Positions 12,618-23,374 of a stretch of DNA of 23,374 bases are shown piece by piece. The position numbers and the translations under genes are program-made. The stretch covers positions 1-23,374 of IMG/VR virus record IMGVR_UViG_3300031920_000007, one strand, 5' to 3'. The first letter of the stretch is position 1. Every line of letters starts with the position of its first letter. The DNA is from a virus. Under the pieces are notes generated by a model. That model saw only the letters and a program-made list of their open reading frames with translations, made no database searches and was not told where the DNA came from.

Positions 12618-12738
12618 CTGTGTCTCGTTTTTTTCTATTTAGTTTCTTTAGATCTTTTATAGTTTGATCTAATATCTCGTGAGTCTTTGCTCTTATGGTA
12701 TACTTAATACCTTTAACTGTTATTTCTGTCTTTATCAT
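12607..12738 (-). CDS. Possible 43-aa ORF (MIKTEITVKGIKYTIRAKTHEILDQTIKDLKKLNRKKRDTDAI) filling the apparent gap upstream of terS.
   Basis: Hand-translated. It overlaps both neighbours (11 nt and 26 nt). There is no other support. Confidence 0.2.
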   Translation of the reverse strand: MIKTEITVKGIKYTIRAKTHEILDQTIKDLKKLNRKKRDTDAI

Positions 12739-12980: not shown

Positions 12981-13214
12981 TTAAATATATTTATAGATGA
13001 TGTTGGCGGTAACTGCAGAGATTGCAGCATAAAGTATACCTACTGGTCCAAATTGAATACACAGTGGAACTACTGACATCCAATAAGTTAGACACATGTC
13101 ACACTTAAATGGTTTGTTAGGTAAATCATCTTCTTTATCTAAGGTTACCATTAGATCTGCTGTTAAATGTCCTAAGCATGCAAATCCTATTATCTGTAGT
13201 ATTATATTAAACAT
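12981..13214 (-). CDS. Small multi-pass membrane protein with a CxxC motif.
   Basis: 77 aa. Hydrophobic N- and C-terminal segments flank KPFKCDMCLTYWMS. Confidence 0.55.
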   Translation of the reverse strand: MFNIILQIIGFACLGHLTADLMVTLDKEDDLPNKPFKCDMCLTYWMSVVPLCIQFGPVGILYAAISAVTANIIYKYI

Positions 13215-13734: not shown

Positions 13735-13954
13735 ATCTATCTAAAATATCTTTTAAGATTAGACACCTTTCGTAGTGTTCAACCTGTTCTAACAATATAA
13801 GATCTCCTTTAAGTTCATCTATTGCTGTGTCAAAGTCCATATCATTACGATCATAATAATATTCAAAGACTAGTTCTTGTATTAGTTCTTTAGCTTTATC
13901 ATCTTCTAATGAATAACCATCAAGTACTAGTTTCTTTAAGTGTTCCCTTCTCAT
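13727..13954 (-). CDS. Small acidic hypothetical protein.
   Basis: 75-aa ORF translationally coupled on both sides (overlaps of 1 and 8 nt). Confidence 0.5.
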   Translation of the reverse strand: MRREHLKKLVLDGYSLEDDKAKELIQELVFEYYYDRNDMDFDTAIDELKGDLILLEQVEHYERCLILKDILDRFE

Positions 13955-15661: not shown

Positions 15662-15693
15662 AATACATTGTTTTTATTTGTTAGTGTATACTT

Positions 15694-15723
15694 GTTATAC
15701 TAGATATCTATCCTTTGTTTCAT
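15694..15723 (-). promoter_or_regulatory. Promoter-like element P_c (ATGAAA-N18-TATAAC) for the HNH/replication/terminase block.
   Basis: On the minus strand, ATGAAAC (15723-15717), an 18-nt spacer holding the perfect palindrome TAGATATCTA (15701-15710), then TATAAC (15699-15694). About 32 nt to the ATG at 15661. Confidence 0.5.
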
Positions 15724-15771
15724 GGCGACTCGTCACTTTTGCGCATTATATTAGGATATTATTATATTATA

Positions 15772-15801
15772 TTGAAACAGTATGAAAGTTTGGGGTATAA
15801 T
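15772..15801 (+). promoter_or_regulatory. Promoter-like element P_d (TTGAAA-N18-TATAAT), divergent from P_c.
   Basis: TTGAAA at 15772-15777, TATAAT at 15796-15801. No long ORF lies downstream, and a terminator follows ~60 nt later. Confidence 0.5.
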
Positions 15802-15807
15802 AAATGT

Positions 15808-15897
15808 AATAACACTTAGATGTTTTGTTATTATTGTTTTAATTTTATTATGTATATATGGAAAAGCCAGAGTTCATGATCGTCTCTGGCTTTTTTA
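15808..15897 (+). ncRNA. Candidate ~90-nt small transcript (sRNA, or mRNA for a 19-aa peptide).
   Basis: Bracketed by P_d and the hairpin plus T6 at 15862-15896. An internal 8-bp hairpin pairs TAATAACA (15807-15814) with TGTTATTA (15826-15833). A mini-ORF at 15820..15879 encodes MFCYYCFNFIMYIWKSQSS. Confidence 0.25.
15862..15896. terminator. Bidirectional intrinsic terminator.
   Basis: AAAAGCCAGAG - 11-nt loop - CTCTGGCTTTT, followed by TT. The A-tract and T-tract flanks allow function on both strands. Confidence 0.65.
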
Positions 15898-15910
15898 TGT
15901 TCACTAGTGA

Positions 15911-15948
15911 GCAAAAGAAAACCCGTACAAAATGGCTTAAGTACGGGT
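15911..15948 (-). terminator. Intrinsic terminator ending the late (fibre) operon.
   Basis: 8-bp GC-rich stem ACCCGTAC/GTACGGGT (15921-28 / 15941-48). On the minus strand it is followed by TTTCTTTTG. Confidence 0.7.
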
Positions 15949-15977
15949 CAACTAAAAGTAATAACTTACGACAGCTA

Positions 15978-18510: not shown

Positions 18511-19647
18511 TTATAATGATTCTATATTTGTTTGTGGTGCAGTATCAGTTACTTGTTCTTCGTTAACTAACTTGTTAGGTTTAATCTTAATACCTACATT
18601 GTAACCTGCTAATTTTAACATATAACCAAATCCACTAATAATCTTCTTTCTCTTAGGTGTAATTACTGTACCTTCAAAGTGTGCATAAGCAACTTTAATT
18701 TCATCTGAGTTATTAGAGAATCCTGAACTATCTTTAATACCTAATAATAGAGGTGATGTAATTCTATGTGCAGTTAAGATTCTACTAGAGATTCTTTCTT
18801 CTAATAACAAATAGTAGTCATCATTTGCACTATCAATAGGAGTAACTTGTAGTTCTTTTCCTGGTTCTGAGAATGCTAAGAAGAATCTACCTGCGTTTTC
18901 TGTTCCTGTAAATGTTCTTTCAATCTCTTGATAAACATCTCTTCTTTCTTCTGGTGTTGGTACGCCATTTCTAAACTGTACAAACATAGAAGGTGCTAAA
19001 CCATTTGCTATATTGTTAGCGTGAAATCTACTAACTTGTGCATCTAATGAAATATCATTCATTGCTGCTACATATCCTGGTAATGGATACACTTCGTTTC
19101 CTGGTGTGTAGTTATAGAAATAGAATATCTGAGAAGCATTGTCACCTTTATTATCAGTTGGATCAAATGCTTTATATGTGTTATAAGGATTCTTTCTAAG
19201 ATTAGCCCAATCAGATGAGAACATATACTCTTCAACTGTATCTTCTTCATTAGGTTTACCTGATCTTACATTACCAAATGGTAAGTGGTACATCTCTGAT
19301 ATCTTGGTTCTTTCTTTATTCCAGATTACATTAATAGCATAACCTTGATAGATTGTATAATCTAAAGAAATCTTTTCAAATATCTCATCAATTGTTTCGC
19401 CTTTTGAATTAATGTATTCGTCGCCGATGATTTCAATACCATCACCGATAATACCAGCTGTAATACTATCAATACAAGTATGGTGCATTGCAGAAGTGTC
19501 ATATAATTCTATTAATGATTGTGGGAATAGGTTTAAGCCGCCATAAAACATATAGTCTTTATTACGAACTTCTCTGATATCTGGCAATTCAATTGCTTGA
19601 AATTTAGAACCGTTGATTGCGTAGATTCCTTCGGGTGTACTTCTCAT
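18511..19647 (-). CDS. Portal protein.
   Basis: 378 aa. Portal-like segments: YPLPGYVAAMNDISLDAQVSRFHANNIANGLAPS, TFTGTENAGRFFLAF, ISSRILTAHRITSPLLLGI. Confidence 0.7.
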   Translation of the reverse strand: MRSTPEGIYAINGSKFQAIELPDIREVRNKDYMFYGGLNLFPQSLIELYDTSAMHHTCIDSITAGIIGDGIEIIGDEYINSKGETIDEIFEKISLDYTIYQGYAINVIWNKERTKISEMYHLPFGNVRSGKPNEEDTVEEYMFSSDWANLRKNPYNTYKAFDPTDNKGDNASQIFYFYNYTPGNEVYPLPGYVAAMNDISLDAQVSRFHANNIANGLAPSMFVQFRNGVPTPEERRDVYQEIERTFTGTENAGRFFLAFSEPGKELQVTPIDSANDDYYLLLEERISSRILTAHRITSPLLLGIKDSSGFSNNSDEIKVAYAHFEGTVITPKRKKIISGFGYMLKLAGYNVGIKIKPNKLVNEEQVTDTAPQTNIESL

Positions 19648-19656
19648 ATTTATATT

Positions 19657-20022
19657 TTAATAATTTGGTCGATAGAACACTTCAGAAACTCGTTCTTCTA
19701 TTGCTGGTGTACTAGTGAAGTTAGTAGTTCCTAAGCCTCCACCAGGTTGTGTTATTATTTTAACTAAGCCAGCTTCTATCGTGACTAGATTCTTTTCTAG
19801 CCTCCAGTTATATACTCCATTTTTGTGGGCGTTACCAAAGCCAGTTGGAAAGGTAATGCTTATTGTTGTAAATCTCGTGTTAGTCTCTAATATTGTAGCA
19901 GCCATTTCAATTGGTTGATGCGAATACTGAGATGTTAACACAAATGTCCAATCACCACTCAAATTAGGTTGGTTTATGGATACTTCTCTTGTTAAATCAA
20001 ATTCTGGTACTAAAATGGTCAT
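19657..20022 (-). CDS. Hypothetical beta-rich virion protein.
   Basis: 121-aa ORF, the first gene of the portal-to-fibre operon. No motif recognised. Confidence 0.4.
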   Translation of the reverse strand: MTILVPEFDLTREVSINQPNLSGDWTFVLTSQYSHQPIEMAATILETNTRFTTISITFPTGFGNAHKNGVYNWRLEKNLVTIEAGLVKIITQPGGGLGTTNFTSTPAIEERVSEVFYRPNY

Positions 20023-20030
20023 AGGCTAGT

Positions 20031-20058
20031 TATATTTAGTCGTATACATATAAATATA
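20031..20058. promoter_or_regulatory. 28-bp near-perfect inverted repeat TATATTTA-N3-GTATAC-N3-TAAATATA. Candidate divergent promoters or operator.
   Basis: The arms at 20031-38 and 20051-58 are exact reverse complements and the centre GTATAC is palindromic. Each arm reads TATATTTA toward its own gene (20077+ and 20022-). Confidence 0.45.
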
Positions 20059-20076
20059 AAAACATAGTAAATTGAC

Positions 20077-20577
20077 ATGGAGTTCAAAGAAGAAGACATA
20101 AAGATTGGTAAATTTAGAAATAATCAATGGAAACGACTTAATGGTATAGAATCAATAAGTAAAACTTTAGATAGATTTAAGAAAGAAATAGATTGGTCTG
20201 ATTATGAATTATGGATACATGGAAGTATACTCAGTGATGTTGACACTTATGATATTGATATGACTATAATGGGTCCAATGAAACCTAAGCGTATCATGTA
20301 TCTATTAGAACAAGTACATCGTATTGGATTTGAAGAACAAACATTACCTGATGTTAAGTATAGTCTCTCAGATGAGTTGTATGATCCTCAAATAGATTCG
20401 CCTAAGACTATTACATATGTATGTTATAGAGGTCAGATAACTATCAATGGTGAACCATACAACTATGGTAAACTAGTCAATAATCTTTGGATGAAAGAAC
20501 AGAGATATCCGATGGCTAAAACTCTAAATGCCATGGCAGAGGGTAGACAATATAAGAGTCCACACCAAGTTACATAA
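20077..20577 (+). CDS. Pol-beta-superfamily nucleotidyltransferase-like protein (moron, opposite strand).
   Basis: 166 aa. A helix then strand then IHGS-x8-DID (G49 S50 ... D59 I60 D61) fits the hG[GS]-x(8-13)-Dh[DE] minimal NTase signature. It has its own promoter region and terminator. Confidence 0.5.
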   Translation: MEFKEEDIKIGKFRNNQWKRLNGIESISKTLDRFKKEIDWSDYELWIHGSILSDVDTYDIDMTIMGPMKPKRIMYLLEQVHRIGFEEQTLPDVKYSLSDELYDPQIDSPKTITYVCYRGQITINGEPYNYGKLVNNLWMKEQRYPMAKTLNAMAEGRQYKSPHQVT

Positions 20578-20614
20578 AAAAAGGACCACATTTCTGTAGT
20601 CCTTTCTTTGTTTT
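20576..20614. terminator. Bidirectional intrinsic terminator between convergent genes.
   Basis: AAAGGACCAC - ATTTCT - GTAGTCCTTT. The single mismatch becomes a G-U pair in the minus-strand RNA. A-run upstream and CTTTGTTTT downstream. Confidence 0.65.
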
Positions 20615-20626
20615 AATGTTTAAAGA

Positions 20627-21145
20627 TTATGCTTCTACTATTGTAGATGCAACTGTAAAGATTGGGCTAGCTTCTAAGCCACCTAATACTATTTCATATC
20701 CGTTTCTATCTCCGTATGCTACGCCTGATGTTGCAGAACCTGATACTAAGAAAGCACCTTTTTCTACACCTATCGACCAGTAGTTTCCATTACCATCTTT
20801 AGCAACTACAACCATGGTAGTAGCTTGAGCCATTAATAACAATTGATCTCTTTTAGTAGCTTCCATCTTGTTAAAGACACAAGTTAATTGTTGATCAAAG
20901 AATAATGTACCATTTTCTTGAGATACTGTAGTAGTCTCAGTTATAGATGATGATTGTCTTGGAGTTTCGAATTTGAAAAAATCAGATGGTGTTAAAGCAG
21001 CACCACCTACAGTGATAGCGGTAATGTTACCTGCTGATTCTGTAATTGATTCTACAGGTCCATTCGCGATAAAGATAGCTTCGATACCACCAGTACCGTC
21101 GTTACATAAATCTAGAAAACCTGCTGTTAATGCTGAACAACTCAT
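20627..21145 (-). CDS. Putative major tail (tube) protein.
   Basis: 172 aa, downstream of the capsid gene. Pattern GGIEAIFIA...ETPRQSSSITETT...ENGTLFFDQQL...RDQLL...VVVAKDGNGNYWSIGVEKGA...GDRNGYEIVLGG resembles siphovirus tail-tube families (from memory). A decoration protein is not excluded. Confidence 0.45.
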   Translation of the reverse strand: MSCSALTAGFLDLCNDGTGGIEAIFIANGPVESITESAGNITAITVGGAALTPSDFFKFETPRQSSSITETTTVSQENGTLFFDQQLTCVFNKMEATKRDQLLLMAQATTMVVVAKDGNGNYWSIGVEKGAFLVSGSATSGVAYGDRNGYEIVLGGLEASPIFTVASTIVEA

Positions 21146-21160
21146 ATTTATATTGATTTT

Positions 21161-21201
21161 TTTAATTAATTAAAAGACTGAGGACTTAATGTCCCCAGTC
21201 T
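21161..21201 (-). terminator. Terminator / attenuator hairpin after the major capsid gene.
   Basis: In the minus-strand RNA, GACUGGGGAC - AUUAA - GUCCUCAGUC forms 10 bp with one G-U pair, followed by UUUUAAUUAAUU. Confidence 0.55.
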
Positions 21202-21216
21202 ATAGTTTATTGGCTA

Positions 21217-22116
21217 TTATGCCATATCGTTAGTAGCGAATACATTCACTTCACCAACTCCAACACCTAATCTCCATGCAGCTCTGAACTTCATTACGTC
21301 AGCAGCTTCGTCATAGAAAAATCTAAATGTATCTAACTCATCAGTTAAACCTGTTGCAGCAAGGATCATTTTCCCTGGTCCAGCAAATTTGTAATCAGAA
21401 CCAACTAATCCTGAAGACTTAACAACTGTTACGTTAGTTCCTGGAAGGATTAAGATATCATTACCTTCAACTGAGTTAAAGTGATATAAGTTCTGAGCAA
21501 CTAAAGCTCTTACTAATGCTCTATATGCATCAGGAGAAACTACCATGATTAAATCGTCTCTGTCTTTTACAGACTCGTCGATTGCATCATAAAGGTCTAA
21601 AGCTTGTTCATATGCGTTAGTTGCATCCCATGCAGCTGGTGTACCAGCTTGTAATTGTGCTCCATTAGCAGAAGTAACTTGTGCTTTTAATCCTGTTGTT
21701 GCACCGAAACCATTGATTAAGAAACCTTCGTTGTATTTTCTCAATTTGTCTGCATAAGACTCAGAGATTACTTCTTCGAAAGGAATCATATCGTTACCAG
21801 TTCCTGCGTTCATGAATGCTGATTGATACTTAGCTCTTAAGTCTTCAACACACATTTCAGTTTTAGACTGTAATGATTCGATTGTTACGTTTACTTGTGA
21901 GTAAGTTACTTCACCGTCTGAAGTCCATCCACAAGATAATGCAGATACTGGCAATGCAGCATCTACTAAGTTAATTGAAACAGTACCTGAAGTGAATCCT
22001 GATCTAAGATCAACATAGTCAAGTAGGTCTGTTTTTAAAACTACCTTTGAGATTAAATCTAAAGATAATTGGTCTGTATAAGCAGGCAATGCTGCTACAT
22101 TAAATCCAAATGCCAT
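21217..22116 (-). CDS. Major capsid protein (HK97-fold type).
   Basis: 299 aa. Size, its position after the scaffold gene, the downstream attenuator and the N-terminus MAFGFNVAALPAYTDQLSLDLI are typical of HK97-like MCPs. Confidence 0.75.
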   Translation of the reverse strand: MAFGFNVAALPAYTDQLSLDLISKVVLKTDLLDYVDLRSGFTSGTVSINLVDAALPVSALSCGWTSDGEVTYSQVNVTIESLQSKTEMCVEDLRAKYQSAFMNAGTGNDMIPFEEVISESYADKLRKYNEGFLINGFGATTGLKAQVTSANGAQLQAGTPAAWDATNAYEQALDLYDAIDESVKDRDDLIMVVSPDAYRALVRALVAQNLYHFNSVEGNDILILPGTNVTVVKSSGLVGSDYKFAGPGKMILAATGLTDELDTFRFFYDEAADVMKFRAAWRLGVGVGEVNVFATNDMA

Positions 22117-22147: not shown

Positions 22148-22726
22148 TTAGTTTTTACGAACAGATCTCAAGAAATCCATTCTTTGTGCTAGATTATCAT
22201 CTGCGATTTTCTTGTTCTCTGCAAATGTGTTTCTAATTGGTTTAGCTGCTGGCTCATCTGCAATTACTGCAAATTTAGCTTTAAGCTCTGTTACTTCTTC
22301 TGTTAGCGCTGCGATCTCTTCAGTGAATGGAGCAATCATTTCAGCAATACCTGTTAACAACTCTTCAGTTGCAGGAATAGCTGCTTCAGAAACTGGAACT
22401 TCTACCTCTACCTCTTCCATTACCTCTTCGATAATTTCTTCAGGTTTAGCTTCTGCTTCAACTTCTGAGATTTCCATAATCTCACCATTAGGACCAACAC
22501 CTACTAAAAGACCTTCAGTTGTTTCATGTATCGCTTCAGGTGCAAATGGTCTTTCTTCACCTTCTTGTACTTGTATGTACAAGATAGATCCAACTTCCAA
22601 TTCACCATCAGTTTCAACAATAGTCCCATCAACTAATTCGGCTGTTGCCATCTTAATCTCAGTTACAACTGCTTTGTCAGCTGCGAGCATAACTCTTAGC
22701 TTCTTTACCATGTCGTTTACTGTCAT
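22148..22726 (-). CDS. Scaffolding protein.
   Basis: 192 aa, strongly acidic and helical (EEIIEEVMEEVEVEV, EEIAALTEEVTELKAKF), immediately upstream of the MCP gene. Confidence 0.6.
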   Translation of the reverse strand: MTVNDMVKKLRVMLAADKAVVTEIKMATAELVDGTIVETDGELEVGSILYIQVQEGEERPFAPEAIHETTEGLLVGVGPNGEIMEISEVEAEAKPEEIIEEVMEEVEVEVPVSEAAIPATEELLTGIAEMIAPFTEEIAALTEEVTELKAKFAVIADEPAAKPIRNTFAENKKIADDNLAQRMDFLRSVRKN

Positions 22727-22803: not shown

Positions 22804-22833
22804 TTGAAACTTTATCGTGTATGCCTGTATAAC
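22804..22833 (+). promoter_or_regulatory. Promoter-like element P_b (TTGAAA-N18-TATAAC) in front of the GIY-YIG-like gene.
   Basis: TTGAAA at 22804-22809 and TATAAC at 22828-22833. TATAACTAGTAT is shared exactly with P_a. The ATG at 22838 is only 4 nt downstream, so the mRNA may be leaderless. Confidence 0.45.
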
Positions 22834-22837
22834 TAGT

Positions 22838-23326
22838 ATGATATACACAATATACAAAGGATTATTACCAAATGGTAGAGTTAAAATTGGATGTGATGAA
22901 GCGTGGCCTAATAGAGCAATAGAACAAACACTTACAGATTATTACGTATTAGAAGAACACGAAGATATTAGAGTTGCTTCTTTTAGAGAAATAGAATTAC
23001 AAAGAGAACATGGTGTAAAGGTCGATACAATACCATACTACATGACTAAGGTATATGCCGCTCGAGCTTCACGTAAAGCACAGCAAAATGGTAATCATAA
23101 TTTTCAAACAATGACTAAAGAGCAAAGAAGTCAAAATGCTAAAAAAAATAGTATATTTAAAAATAGTTCTTTTCAATCTGAAATGGGTAAACGTGGTAAA
23201 GGTATACCTAAACCACATGCTGCTGATTTAGCTAGAGCTTTAAATACTGAATGGTATTGTGAAGTATGTGATAAGTCAGGTAAAGGTAAAGGTAATTGGA
23301 CAAGATACCATAAGAATTGTAAATAA
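22838..23326 (+). CDS. GIY-YIG-like homing endonuclease with a C-terminal zinc-finger-like motif.
   Basis: MIYTIYKGLLPNGRVKIGCD (degenerate GIY...YIG), then R (WPNR) and FREIELQREHG. C-terminal CEVC...YHKNC. The track ORF begins at GTG 22817, but ATG 22838 is preferred. Confidence 0.5.
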   Translation: MIYTIYKGLLPNGRVKIGCDEAWPNRAIEQTLTDYYVLEEHEDIRVASFREIELQREHGVKVDTIPYYMTKVYAARASRKAQQNGNHNFQTMTKEQRSQNAKKNSIFKNSSFQSEMGKRGKGIPKPHAADLARALNTEWYCEVCDKSGKGKGNWTRYHKNCK

Positions 23327-23328
23327 TT

Positions 23329-23358
23329 TTGAAACCTTTTAAAAATATAGTGTATAAC
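23329..23358 (+). promoter_or_regulatory. Promoter-like element P_a (TTGAAA-N18-TATAAC) upstream of ORF 58..204 across the circular junction.
   Basis: TTGAAA at 23329-23334, an 18-nt spacer, TATAAC at 23353-23358 (the second copy has TATAAC at 24-29). It is one of four copies of TGAAAC-N17-TATAAY in the window, and all four are intergenic. Confidence 0.45.
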
Positions 23359-23374
23359 TAGTATATAACAATTT
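23330..23374. repeat. Terminal direct repeat, copy 2.
   Basis: Exact 45/45 identity with 1..45. The unique genome length is therefore 23,329 bp. Confidence 0.9.

Follow-up and report, generated by a model that had tools for sequence, protein, structure and literature searches.

The subject of this study is a small gene on the plus strand of a viral DNA stretch of 23,374 nucleotides (IMG/VR record IMGVR_UViG_3300031920_000007, positions 1 to 23,374), which we call the window. The open reading frame (ORF) at 20077..20577 has its ATG at 20077 and a stop codon ending at 20577, and it encodes a protein of 166 amino acids (aa). In our assessment, this is probably an optional, stand-alone nucleotidyltransferase (NTase) of the Pol-beta superfamily with a role on the host side and with an acceptor that is not assignable. 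A preliminary description of the DNA, made from the letters alone, had proposed an NTase-like moron here, as a single 166-aa plus-strand gene within a minus-strand run. The ORF lies exactly at that place and is the sole plus-strand gene amid the long run of minus-strand genes. It is a real gene, as its homologues, a dN/dS of ca 0.30 and a confident structure model show. The cassette sits, on the opposite strand, between the terminator of the operon for the scaffold, capsid and 172-aa proteins and the promoter region of the operon for a 121-aa protein and the portal.

The identification as an NTase starts from the catalytic residues. The motif of the window protein is H48-G49-S50, followed by eight residues and D59-I-D61-M, with P-D92-V further on. 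On the plus strand, the codons of G49-S50, the hG[GS] NTP-binding turn, are at 20221..20226 (GGA AGT), those of D59-I60-D61, the predicted metal-binding DxD on strand 59-65, are at 20251..20259 (GAT at 20251-20253 and GAT at 20257-20259), and that of D92, which the alignments and models place as the third catalytic carboxylate on strand 90-96, is at 20350..20352. In alignment A2, with 44 homologues down to 20% identity, no substitution is seen at G49, D59, D61 or G66, and D92, P145 and P162 are retained by at least 90% of the sequences. A second alignment (A3) was built round a distant subfamily of 180 aa, and the Gly and the three Asp at the matching positions are invariant there as well.

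The AlphaFold2 model of the window protein has a pLDDT of 91.5 and a pTM of 0.87. Its N-terminal half is composed of a beta-hairpin (residues 3-19), a helix (24-37), a strand (44-48), the G49-S50 turn and a strand (59-65) that carries D59 and D61. Then follow a helix (70-86), a strand (90-96) with D92, and a beta-rich C-terminal half of ca 70 aa. The AlphaFold2 model of the distant member P0091 (pLDDT 95.5) has a matching layout. When the two models were compared with the PDB by Foldseek, NTase-fold enzymes made up 49 of the top 50 matches in one case and all 50 in the other, including Pol beta, lambda and mu, TdT, AadA, AAD(9), an MNT antitoxin, DrrA and TENT5C. By these models, the window protein has the core of the Pol-beta NTase superfamily, in the canonical alpha-beta-alpha-beta-alpha-beta order, with a complete catalytic triad (G49-S50, D59 and D61, D92). 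The preliminary description had named a helix, a strand and a GS-x8-DxD signature, and helix 24-37, strand 44-48 and D59/D61 are found as described. It had also proposed to look for a third carboxylate and for an NTase fold in a predicted structure, and both are present.

At the sequence level, the links to known NTases are transitive or weak, although they all point in the same direction, and we regard them as weak but consistent. The second copy of the family domain in P0029 passes the Pfam profile NTP_transf_2 (PF01909) with 26.7 bits against a cut-off of 21, and sub-threshold Pfam matches are seen for six of the 44 members with NTP_transf_2 and for two with Polbeta. For the window protein, the sequence and profile searches of the PDB returned antibody noise or, as the best profile match, the MNT protein 1ylq (AF0614) at an E-value of 0.54.

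In the proposed mechanism, the G49-S50 turn would hold the phosphates of the NTP, while D59, D61 and D92 would hold two Mg2+ ions, and an NMP would be transferred from the NTP to a hydroxyl group of the acceptor. The acceptor site would be formed by the N-terminal beta-hairpin and the beta-rich C-terminal half, which are specific to the family. The transcript would start in the 54-bp divergent region upstream of the gene and stop at the reverse face of the capsid operon terminator. This separate transcription would uncouple the gene from late expression, and the enzyme would act on a host-side target and not in assembly.

The gene is dispensable in nature and its slot is a hot spot, because related phages carry it, lack it or hold other cargo in its place. 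Among the loci retrieved by similarity to the NTase, every one had the gene in this slot and in this orientation, which led to a first reading as a core gene fixed in position. That sample is biased, and the reading was overturned by an unbiased one, in which the loci were found via the neighbouring 172-aa protein (80 loci, 72 of them with both flanks). An NTase-family gene is present in 45 of the 72, always antisense and in the same slot, and no frameshifted or truncated allele was seen among these 45 carriers. In 21 loci the slot measures 115-222 bp and has no cargo ORF, and in the other six it holds different cargo, mostly homing-endonuclease-like. The accessory, moron-like character that had been claimed for the gene is thus borne out.

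Six very close relatives, with 172-aa proteins 88-94% identical to that of the window, are cargo-free and have slots of 117 or 120 bp. The two of these slots that were inspected, out of a group of four, read ...gacATGGAATAAaaaaaggaccac..., that is, a start codon, one codon and a stop (ATG-GAA-TAA), followed by the terminator, and from their sequence they appear to be clean deletions of the ORF. Where other cargo is found, it is of several kinds. The one in L095 (4064-4405; related loci carry L numbers) is a GIY-YIG protein by Pfam, with 28.9 bits against a cut-off of 22.6. L056/57 and L114 have an endonuclease-like cargo of the 'YYIYEV' type, the slot of L121 (3758-4252) holds a homologue of the window ORF 22838-23326, and that of L106 a weakly GT8-like gene (E 9e-4). 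Several loci have both the NTase gene and an endonuclease-like gene in the slot.

Besides the one in L095, endonuclease-like slot genes, which stand either alone or directly behind the NTase gene and on its strand, were seen at L028 8492-8983, L036 4786-5265, L038 5265-5708, L056 1367-1789, L087 4049-4486, L093 4067-4504, L096 813-1301 and L114 1708-2145. The 'YYIYEV...ILIETMEGP...VGDREWELAD' family has no database match, and Pfam confirmed GIY-YIG only for L095, with a weak match for L093. The window ORF 22838-23326 (plus strand, listed from a GTG at 22817) is a second plus-strand gene, located in the divergent gap after the scaffold gene. Its product begins with 'IYTIYKGLLPNGRVKIG...' and has a cluster of Cys and His at its end; it has the appearance of a free-standing homing endonuclease, although Pfam gives no GIY-YIG match.

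The nearest cultured relative is Nonlabens phage P12024S (L013, NC_018271), the portal protein of which is 28% identical to that of the window. Its gene order, namely a capsid-like gene, a 181-aa gene, an antisense ORF, a 125-aa gene and the portal gene, matches the window, and its slot (2750-2980) is occupied by an unrelated antisense ORF of 76 aa, gp04. Judged from the nearest cultured relatives only, the host of the window phage would belong to the Bacteroidota.

The alleles in the slot form a mosaic. Between the window and L016, dS is 0.14 in the 172-aa gene and 0.99 in the NTase gene. The coding DNA of the NTase is only 66-71% identical to the window in L016, L017 and L021, whereas both short intergenic regions are 85-96% identical in L016 and L017, and in L021 the upstream one is 91% and the downstream one 59% identical. 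Over the relatives, the identity of the upstream 54-bp region is 85-94%. L014 has the reverse pattern, with an 87% identical NTase gene and a 67% identical 121-aa gene. The comparison indicates that NTase alleles are replaced by recombination between near-identical phages, beyond a faster point substitution, and the homing endonucleases in the slot would be an obvious driver.

Turning to the family as a whole, 12 homologues with 55-89% identity were found in a set of 5.8 billion proteins, and a search of 1.84 billion cluster representatives gave 57 clusters at E <= 1e-3. Their sources are without exception marine or other metagenomes, and their names are either 'hypothetical protein' or a bare gene-call descriptor. 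Over 37 related loci, the median pairwise dN/dS of the NTase gene is 0.30, to be compared with 0.145 for the capsid gene, 0.145 for the 172-aa gene and 0.115 for the portal gene. By these ratios the gene is under purifying selection, about twice as relaxed as on the flanking structural genes.

Megablast and tblastn searches with the NTase gene against 50,697 GenBank phage records gave no match, nor did the distant member P0091 against GenBank phage records or P0035 in a single-protein scan. A scan of 185,579 species (cellular) genomes returned one spurious match, in which the motif is missing. The sole significant match in a BFVD structure search was an unnamed viral protein, A0A516ML51 (E 1e-7, TM 0.68). 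In our view the protein represents a new family within the known superfamily, so far consisting of phage and metagenome sequences only, and, as judged from the models, this family is distinguished by its own N-terminal hairpin and beta-rich C-terminal region. Some members have unusual architectures. P0029 and P0053 are tandem duplications of the family domain (384-391 aa), and in P0020 the N-terminal half of the domain is joined to a fragment of nucleoside-diphosphate kinase. Some of these architectures, including that of P0063 described below, may be artefacts of gene calling or assembly.

We consider next the surroundings of the gene. The 121-aa gene (19657..20022, minus strand), which is divergent from the NTase gene, is the first gene in the portal-side late operon, as seen in the ORF list and the relatives' loci, and is followed by the portal gene (18511-19647, minus strand; PHROG portal, E 1e-39). 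On the other side, 49 bp separate the NTase stop codon from the convergent 172-aa ORF (20627..21145, minus strand), which is the last gene of the scaffold/capsid-side late operon. It is preceded by a capsid-like gene (21217-22116, minus strand) and an acidic scaffold-like gene (22148-22726, minus strand), both assigned from the ORF list and family search. The preliminary description had called this a tail-tube to portal run. The portal label stands, while the label 'tail tube' is unconfirmed: the 172-aa protein, with 55-94% identity across the relatives, matches only PHROG 19091, a PHROG of unknown function, and has no Pfam match and no PDB sequence match.

For the 121-aa protein, the library searches found no family. 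Its gene is hypervariable like the NTase gene (dN/dS 0.36; 47-80% identity where the capsid has 85-97%), its alleles and those of the NTase gene assort independently of each other, and the only conserved part of the protein is the C-terminal 'GLVKIIT.PGG...YRPNY'.

The 54-bp intergenic region between the two divergent genes (20023..20076) contains a palindrome (20030-20059) with perfect 9-nt arms, TTATATTTA (20030-20038) and TAAATATAA (20051-20059), separated by N12 and sitting within 18-nt arms that are 83% complementary. It overlaps the conserved element ATAAATATAAAA (20050..20061), which reads TTTTATATTTAT on the minus strand. The -7 promoter box of Bacteroidota has the consensus TAnnTTTG, to which TTTTATATTTAT is close. 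The element, or a variant with one or two substitutions, is present in all 16 related loci examined, at a distance of ca 22-30 nt from the minus-strand start codon, compared with 15-46 nt from the NTase start. A closely similar element, with one or two substitutions in several cases, is kept in 11 of the 12 cargo-free slots inspected. By its conservation and spacing, ATAAATATAAAA is most probably promoter-like, serving the 121-aa/portal operon, and it may be shared with the NTase gene. The palindrome's left arm repeats this element, facing the NTase gene, although it is less conserved, and a divergent, overlapping promoter pair in the 54-bp region is therefore plausible from the sequence.

The shorter form TAAATATA has five plus-strand copies in the window, four of which are intergenic and upstream of minus-strand genes (3523, 11039, 20051 and 22772). 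Their distance to the start codon ranges from 5-7 nt to 45 nt, and they may represent more than one kind of signal.

Directly after the NTase gene comes a hairpin, AAAAA-GGACCACA-tttc-TGTAGTCC-TTTCTTT (20578..20609), which is predicted to be a strong intrinsic terminator on the minus strand, where it has a U7 tail, and to act more weakly on the plus strand, where it has a C.A mismatch and an interrupted U tract. The folding energies in the window are -18.8 kcal/mol for the minus-strand RNA and -10.6 kcal/mol for the plus-strand RNA. An automated terminator scan overlooked this mismatched hairpin, while Rfam gave three sub-threshold terminator-like matches (best E 0.025), all on the minus strand and overlapping it. 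We surveyed the 60 nt 3' of the 172-aa gene in 114 loci, which comprise 61 distinct variants. On the strand of the 172-aa gene, all but about six of the 61 have a hairpin that is rich in G+C and followed by a U6-9 tail (the exceptions in the 60-nt scan being L001/L006, L032, L059, L063 and L095), whether the NTase gene is present or not, and thus also in cargo-free slots. The stems differ widely between the variants, that is, they covary.

The fold on the 172-aa strand is the more stable one in 53 of the 61 variants, with medians of -18.0 vs -12.0 kcal/mol, an asymmetry of ca 6 kcal/mol. In eight of ten variants folded both ways, the plus-strand stem has a single break, at a position paired on the minus strand; in the window, this position is a G.U wobble in the minus-strand RNA and a C.A mismatch in the plus-strand RNA. 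The asymmetry seen in these folds implies selection on one strand only. Since the hairpin is more stable in the minus-strand RNA, it would primarily be the terminator of the scaffold/capsid operon, and the NTase gene would use its weaker reverse face. A second terminator-like hairpin, at 21175-21201 on the minus strand, has 11 pairs followed by TTTAATTAAT; it lies between the capsid-like and 172-aa genes and may attenuate transcription after the capsid gene.

The preliminary description had credited the gene with its own palindromic promoter region and a bidirectional terminator. Both the palindrome and the hairpin are there. The conserved element and the hairpin, however, are not private to the gene: they persist in relatives that lack it, and the hairpin is weaker on the plus strand. 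The further claim that the terminator cuts the late operon in two is supported at the sequence level by the position of the hairpin 3' of the 172-aa gene.

It is important to point out that several observations weigh against the reading of an accessory NTase with its own transcription. We infer the activity from sequence and models, and the structural matches behind it are all weak, with E-values of at least 0.017 and TM-scores of at most 0.46. The palm of the family X polymerases and TdT, AadA and AAD(9) are among the top Foldseek matches of both models and share the sheet with three carboxylates. However, for these enzymes E is also at least 0.017 and TM at most 0.43, and the window protein is two to three times smaller, with no counterpart of their fingers, thumb, 8-kDa and helical C-terminal domains. 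The Pfam search with the window protein gave only a spurious match to Dbr1_C (E 0.023), and PHROGs, NCBIfam and PADLOC gave nothing. A sigma-70 scan found no promoter within 20023-20076; its sole plus-strand site lies within the 121-aa gene, just upstream of the region, with its end at 20016.

Finally, the composition of the gene equals that of its flanks (GC 32.1% vs 32.5-39.0%, GC3 0.23 vs 0.19-0.25) and hence gives no sign of recent foreign origin. A 37%-identical NTase allele is found in the same slot of a more distant relative, and together with the composition this makes the family an old resident of the slot. The gene resembles phage morons and homing-endonuclease hot spots in that it lies on the opposite strand between a terminator and a promoter, is present or absent among close relatives, and shares its slot with endonuclease-like genes. 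It differs from morons in its unforeign composition and long residence, with alleles down to ca 37% identity, and the window phage gives no evidence of a temperate life style or prophage expression.

As to the acceptor of the putative NTase, RNA 3' ends, for instance in the repair or tailing of tRNA that host nucleases have damaged, would tentatively be the single most likely class; a sugar or small-molecule hydroxyl is possible, and a protein is a rather doubtful candidate. The three leads are not separable, and we agree with the preliminary description that the role cannot be assigned from the sequence. Phages use Pol-beta NTases in RNA repair (PMC7824862, PMC12776372). In P0063, a CCA-adding-type head with an RNA-binding neck (PF01743, PF12627) is joined to the family domain. 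The junction shows the family's own start methionine, and the arrangement is therefore either a fusion or an immediate adjacency. In one lineage of large phages, a distant member is located beside PNKP phosphatase/kinase genes and ca 3 kb from a gene for a T4 Rnl1-type ligase.

The latter setting recalls RlaP (PF10127; T4 NrdC.11), a Pol-beta NTase that is associated with RNA ligases in the RNA repair of phages and bacteria (PMC12776372, PMC7824862) and resembles the present family as a stand-alone phage NTase. However, NrdC.11 has 336 aa and the window phage has no RNA ligase gene nearby. RlaP itself was rejected as an identity, with no PF10127 match in Pfam and an hhalign probability against NrdC.11 of 0.25%.

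On the other hand, the link to RNA repair consists of only the one fusion or adjacency and the one phage lineage. Most members of the family are also acidic (median pI 5.85), and no RNA-binding module can be recognised in the family, which argues against a polynucleotide acceptor. Other members in large phages are found beside genes for a sulfotransferase, an FkbM-type methyltransferase, an epimerase and glycosyltransferases, and a conserved partner gene was looked for in the large phages and not found.

A more specific proposal, which we put forward only tentatively, is that this gene is the founding member of a family of minimal, phage-specific NTases for counter-defence. The enzyme would, for example, restore or cap RNA 3' ends that immune nucleases of the host attack, or nucleotidylylate an immune protein or signal, and co-infecting phages would swap its alleles in an endonuclease-driven hot spot as the hosts change.

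Another option is that the protein is a nucleotidyltransferase or phosphotransferase for sugars or small molecules. It would either nucleotidylylate the hydroxyl of a sugar, in the manner of the aminoglycoside and lincosamide NTases, or move a phospho-alcohol from a CDP donor, in the manner of LicD and fukutin, and by this activity a host surface glycan or metabolite would be remodelled, e.g. in superinfection exclusion. We regard this as unlikely but credible. In large marine phage contigs, some distant members sit between Sulfotransfer_2 and Methyltransf_21 genes, so closely that the methyltransferase start overlaps the stop of the member, while at most 3 nt lie between the member and the end of the abutting or nearly abutting sulfotransferase gene. 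Others come after an epimerase cluster, after a weak ATPgrasp_ST-like gene, or near CTP_transf_like and glycosyltransferase genes, and the weakly GT8-like cargo of L106 and the acidic pI would also fit. In addition, the best query-normalised TM-score among the long Foldseek alignments to the PDB is that of AadA (0.43, probability 0.92). However, there is no sequence match to the LicD, ANT or Lnu families, ANT enzymes have a helical C-terminal domain that is absent here, the neighbours vary between lineages, and no sugar-metabolism genes adjoin the NTase gene in the window phage.

A counter-defence role as an MNT-like protein AMPylase, which would imitate the antitoxin of HEPN-MNT (type VII) systems and neutralise a host HEPN RNase or another immune protein by adenylylation, appears less probable still. 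Both the MNT proteins (PF01909; 1ylq, 8xeo) and the window protein are small, with a single-domain Pol-beta fold of the order helix-strand-G[GS]-strand(DxD)-helix-strand(D). By sequence, the families that come nearest are of the MNT kind, as seen from P0029, the one member above the PF01909 threshold, and from 1ylq as the best neighbour at the sequence level in the PDB; the MNT antitoxin 8xeo has a target-normalised TM-score of 0.46 (rmsd 4.2, 82 columns). The accessory status, faster evolution and allele exchange would also fit a gene in an arms race.

Against this, the matches of the window protein itself are all below significance (none at all to the NTP_transf_2/MNT profile, with only the six sub-threshold relatives mentioned above), the motif spacing is GS-x8-DxD and not the usual x10, and the N-terminal hairpin and the beta-rich C-terminal half have no MNT counterpart. 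The family is, moreover, found in phages and metagenomes only and has no HEPN partner. A HEPN gene (Rx4-6H) was looked for beside the NTase gene and found neither in the window nor in the 37 + 72 related loci, where all neighbours are structural or endonuclease-like genes and the 121-aa and 172-aa proteins have no HEPN match. The classical HEPN-MNT (type VII) antitoxin was therefore rejected as an identity.

Toxins of the AbiEii/MenT type (DUF1814) were rejected as well. Although 11 of the 44 members match the PADLOC AbiEii profile weakly (best E 5e-5), the two alignments examined cover 35-53 residues round the motif, of 294 profile positions, and the window protein has no match. These toxins are much longer than 166 aa, and their genes sit beside an antitoxin gene; no such gene and no AbiEi-like neighbour is present beside the NTase gene.

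It could also be argued that the gene is a passenger that brings no benefit to the phage, riding with homing endonucleases in the hot spot, with an activity that is irrelevant or decaying. The nature of the slot, the absence of the NTase from 27 of the 72 loci, the start codon, single codon and stop kept in four of these (two of them inspected), and a dN/dS about twice that of the flanking genes would agree with this. Nevertheless, purifying selection is still evident from a ratio of 0.30, the catalytic residues do not vary between alleles even at 20% identity, none of the 45 carriers has a broken allele, and the family also occurs in unrelated large phages outside the slot, so that we consider this explanation very improbable.

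An enzyme of nucleotide signalling, that is, a CD-NTase/cGAS-like synthase or a decoy of one, is effectively refuted already, since only the superfamily motif GS...DxD...D is shared, a protein of 166 aa with a beta-rich C-terminal half is too small and lacks the helical second lobe of CD-NTases, the CD-NTase profiles in PADLOC match none of the 44 members, and no cGAS or DncV structure is among the top 50 Foldseek matches of either model. The list of roles given in the preliminary description is thereby narrowed, with CD-NTase membership excluded and the classical HEPN-MNT pair lacking its HEPN partner.

A few observations concern the genome as a whole. The window is an entire JGI contig, and its positions 1-45 and 23330-23374 are identical (TGAAACCTTTTAAAAATATAGTGTATAACTAGTATATAACAATTT). 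It may be a closed circular assembly with a genome of ca 23.3 kb. No replication genes were noticed in it, the left half not having been searched against family libraries; relatives reach 28-30 kb, and one of them carries a DnaB gene. The genome is tightly packed except for four unusually long stretches (12618-12712, 13031-13206, 13735-13953 and 15662-15977; 95-316 nt) in which no ORF reaches 90 aa, the last of which contains a hairpin followed by a T-run (aaaagccagag...ctctggctttttt).

The present analysis adds to the Pol-beta superfamily a structurally distinct NTase family that is unannotated in Pfam, PHROGs, NCBIfam and PADLOC and has so far been seen in uncultured marine phages only, probably those of Bacteroidota. 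The novelty is at the level of the family, within a known kind of enzyme, and there is as yet no surprising mechanism. Near-identical phages that have the gene, a clean deletion or other cargo in the same slot, defined to within 50 bp, amount to natural, isogenic-like controls, and this series of presence and absence could expose the selective benefit of the NTase gene. Should nothing measurable emerge, it would be an ordinary accessory gene. If, on the other hand, a function in counter-defence or RNA repair is true, the 166-aa protein would be a compact tool and a marker for a mechanism of host immunity in marine Flavobacteriia.

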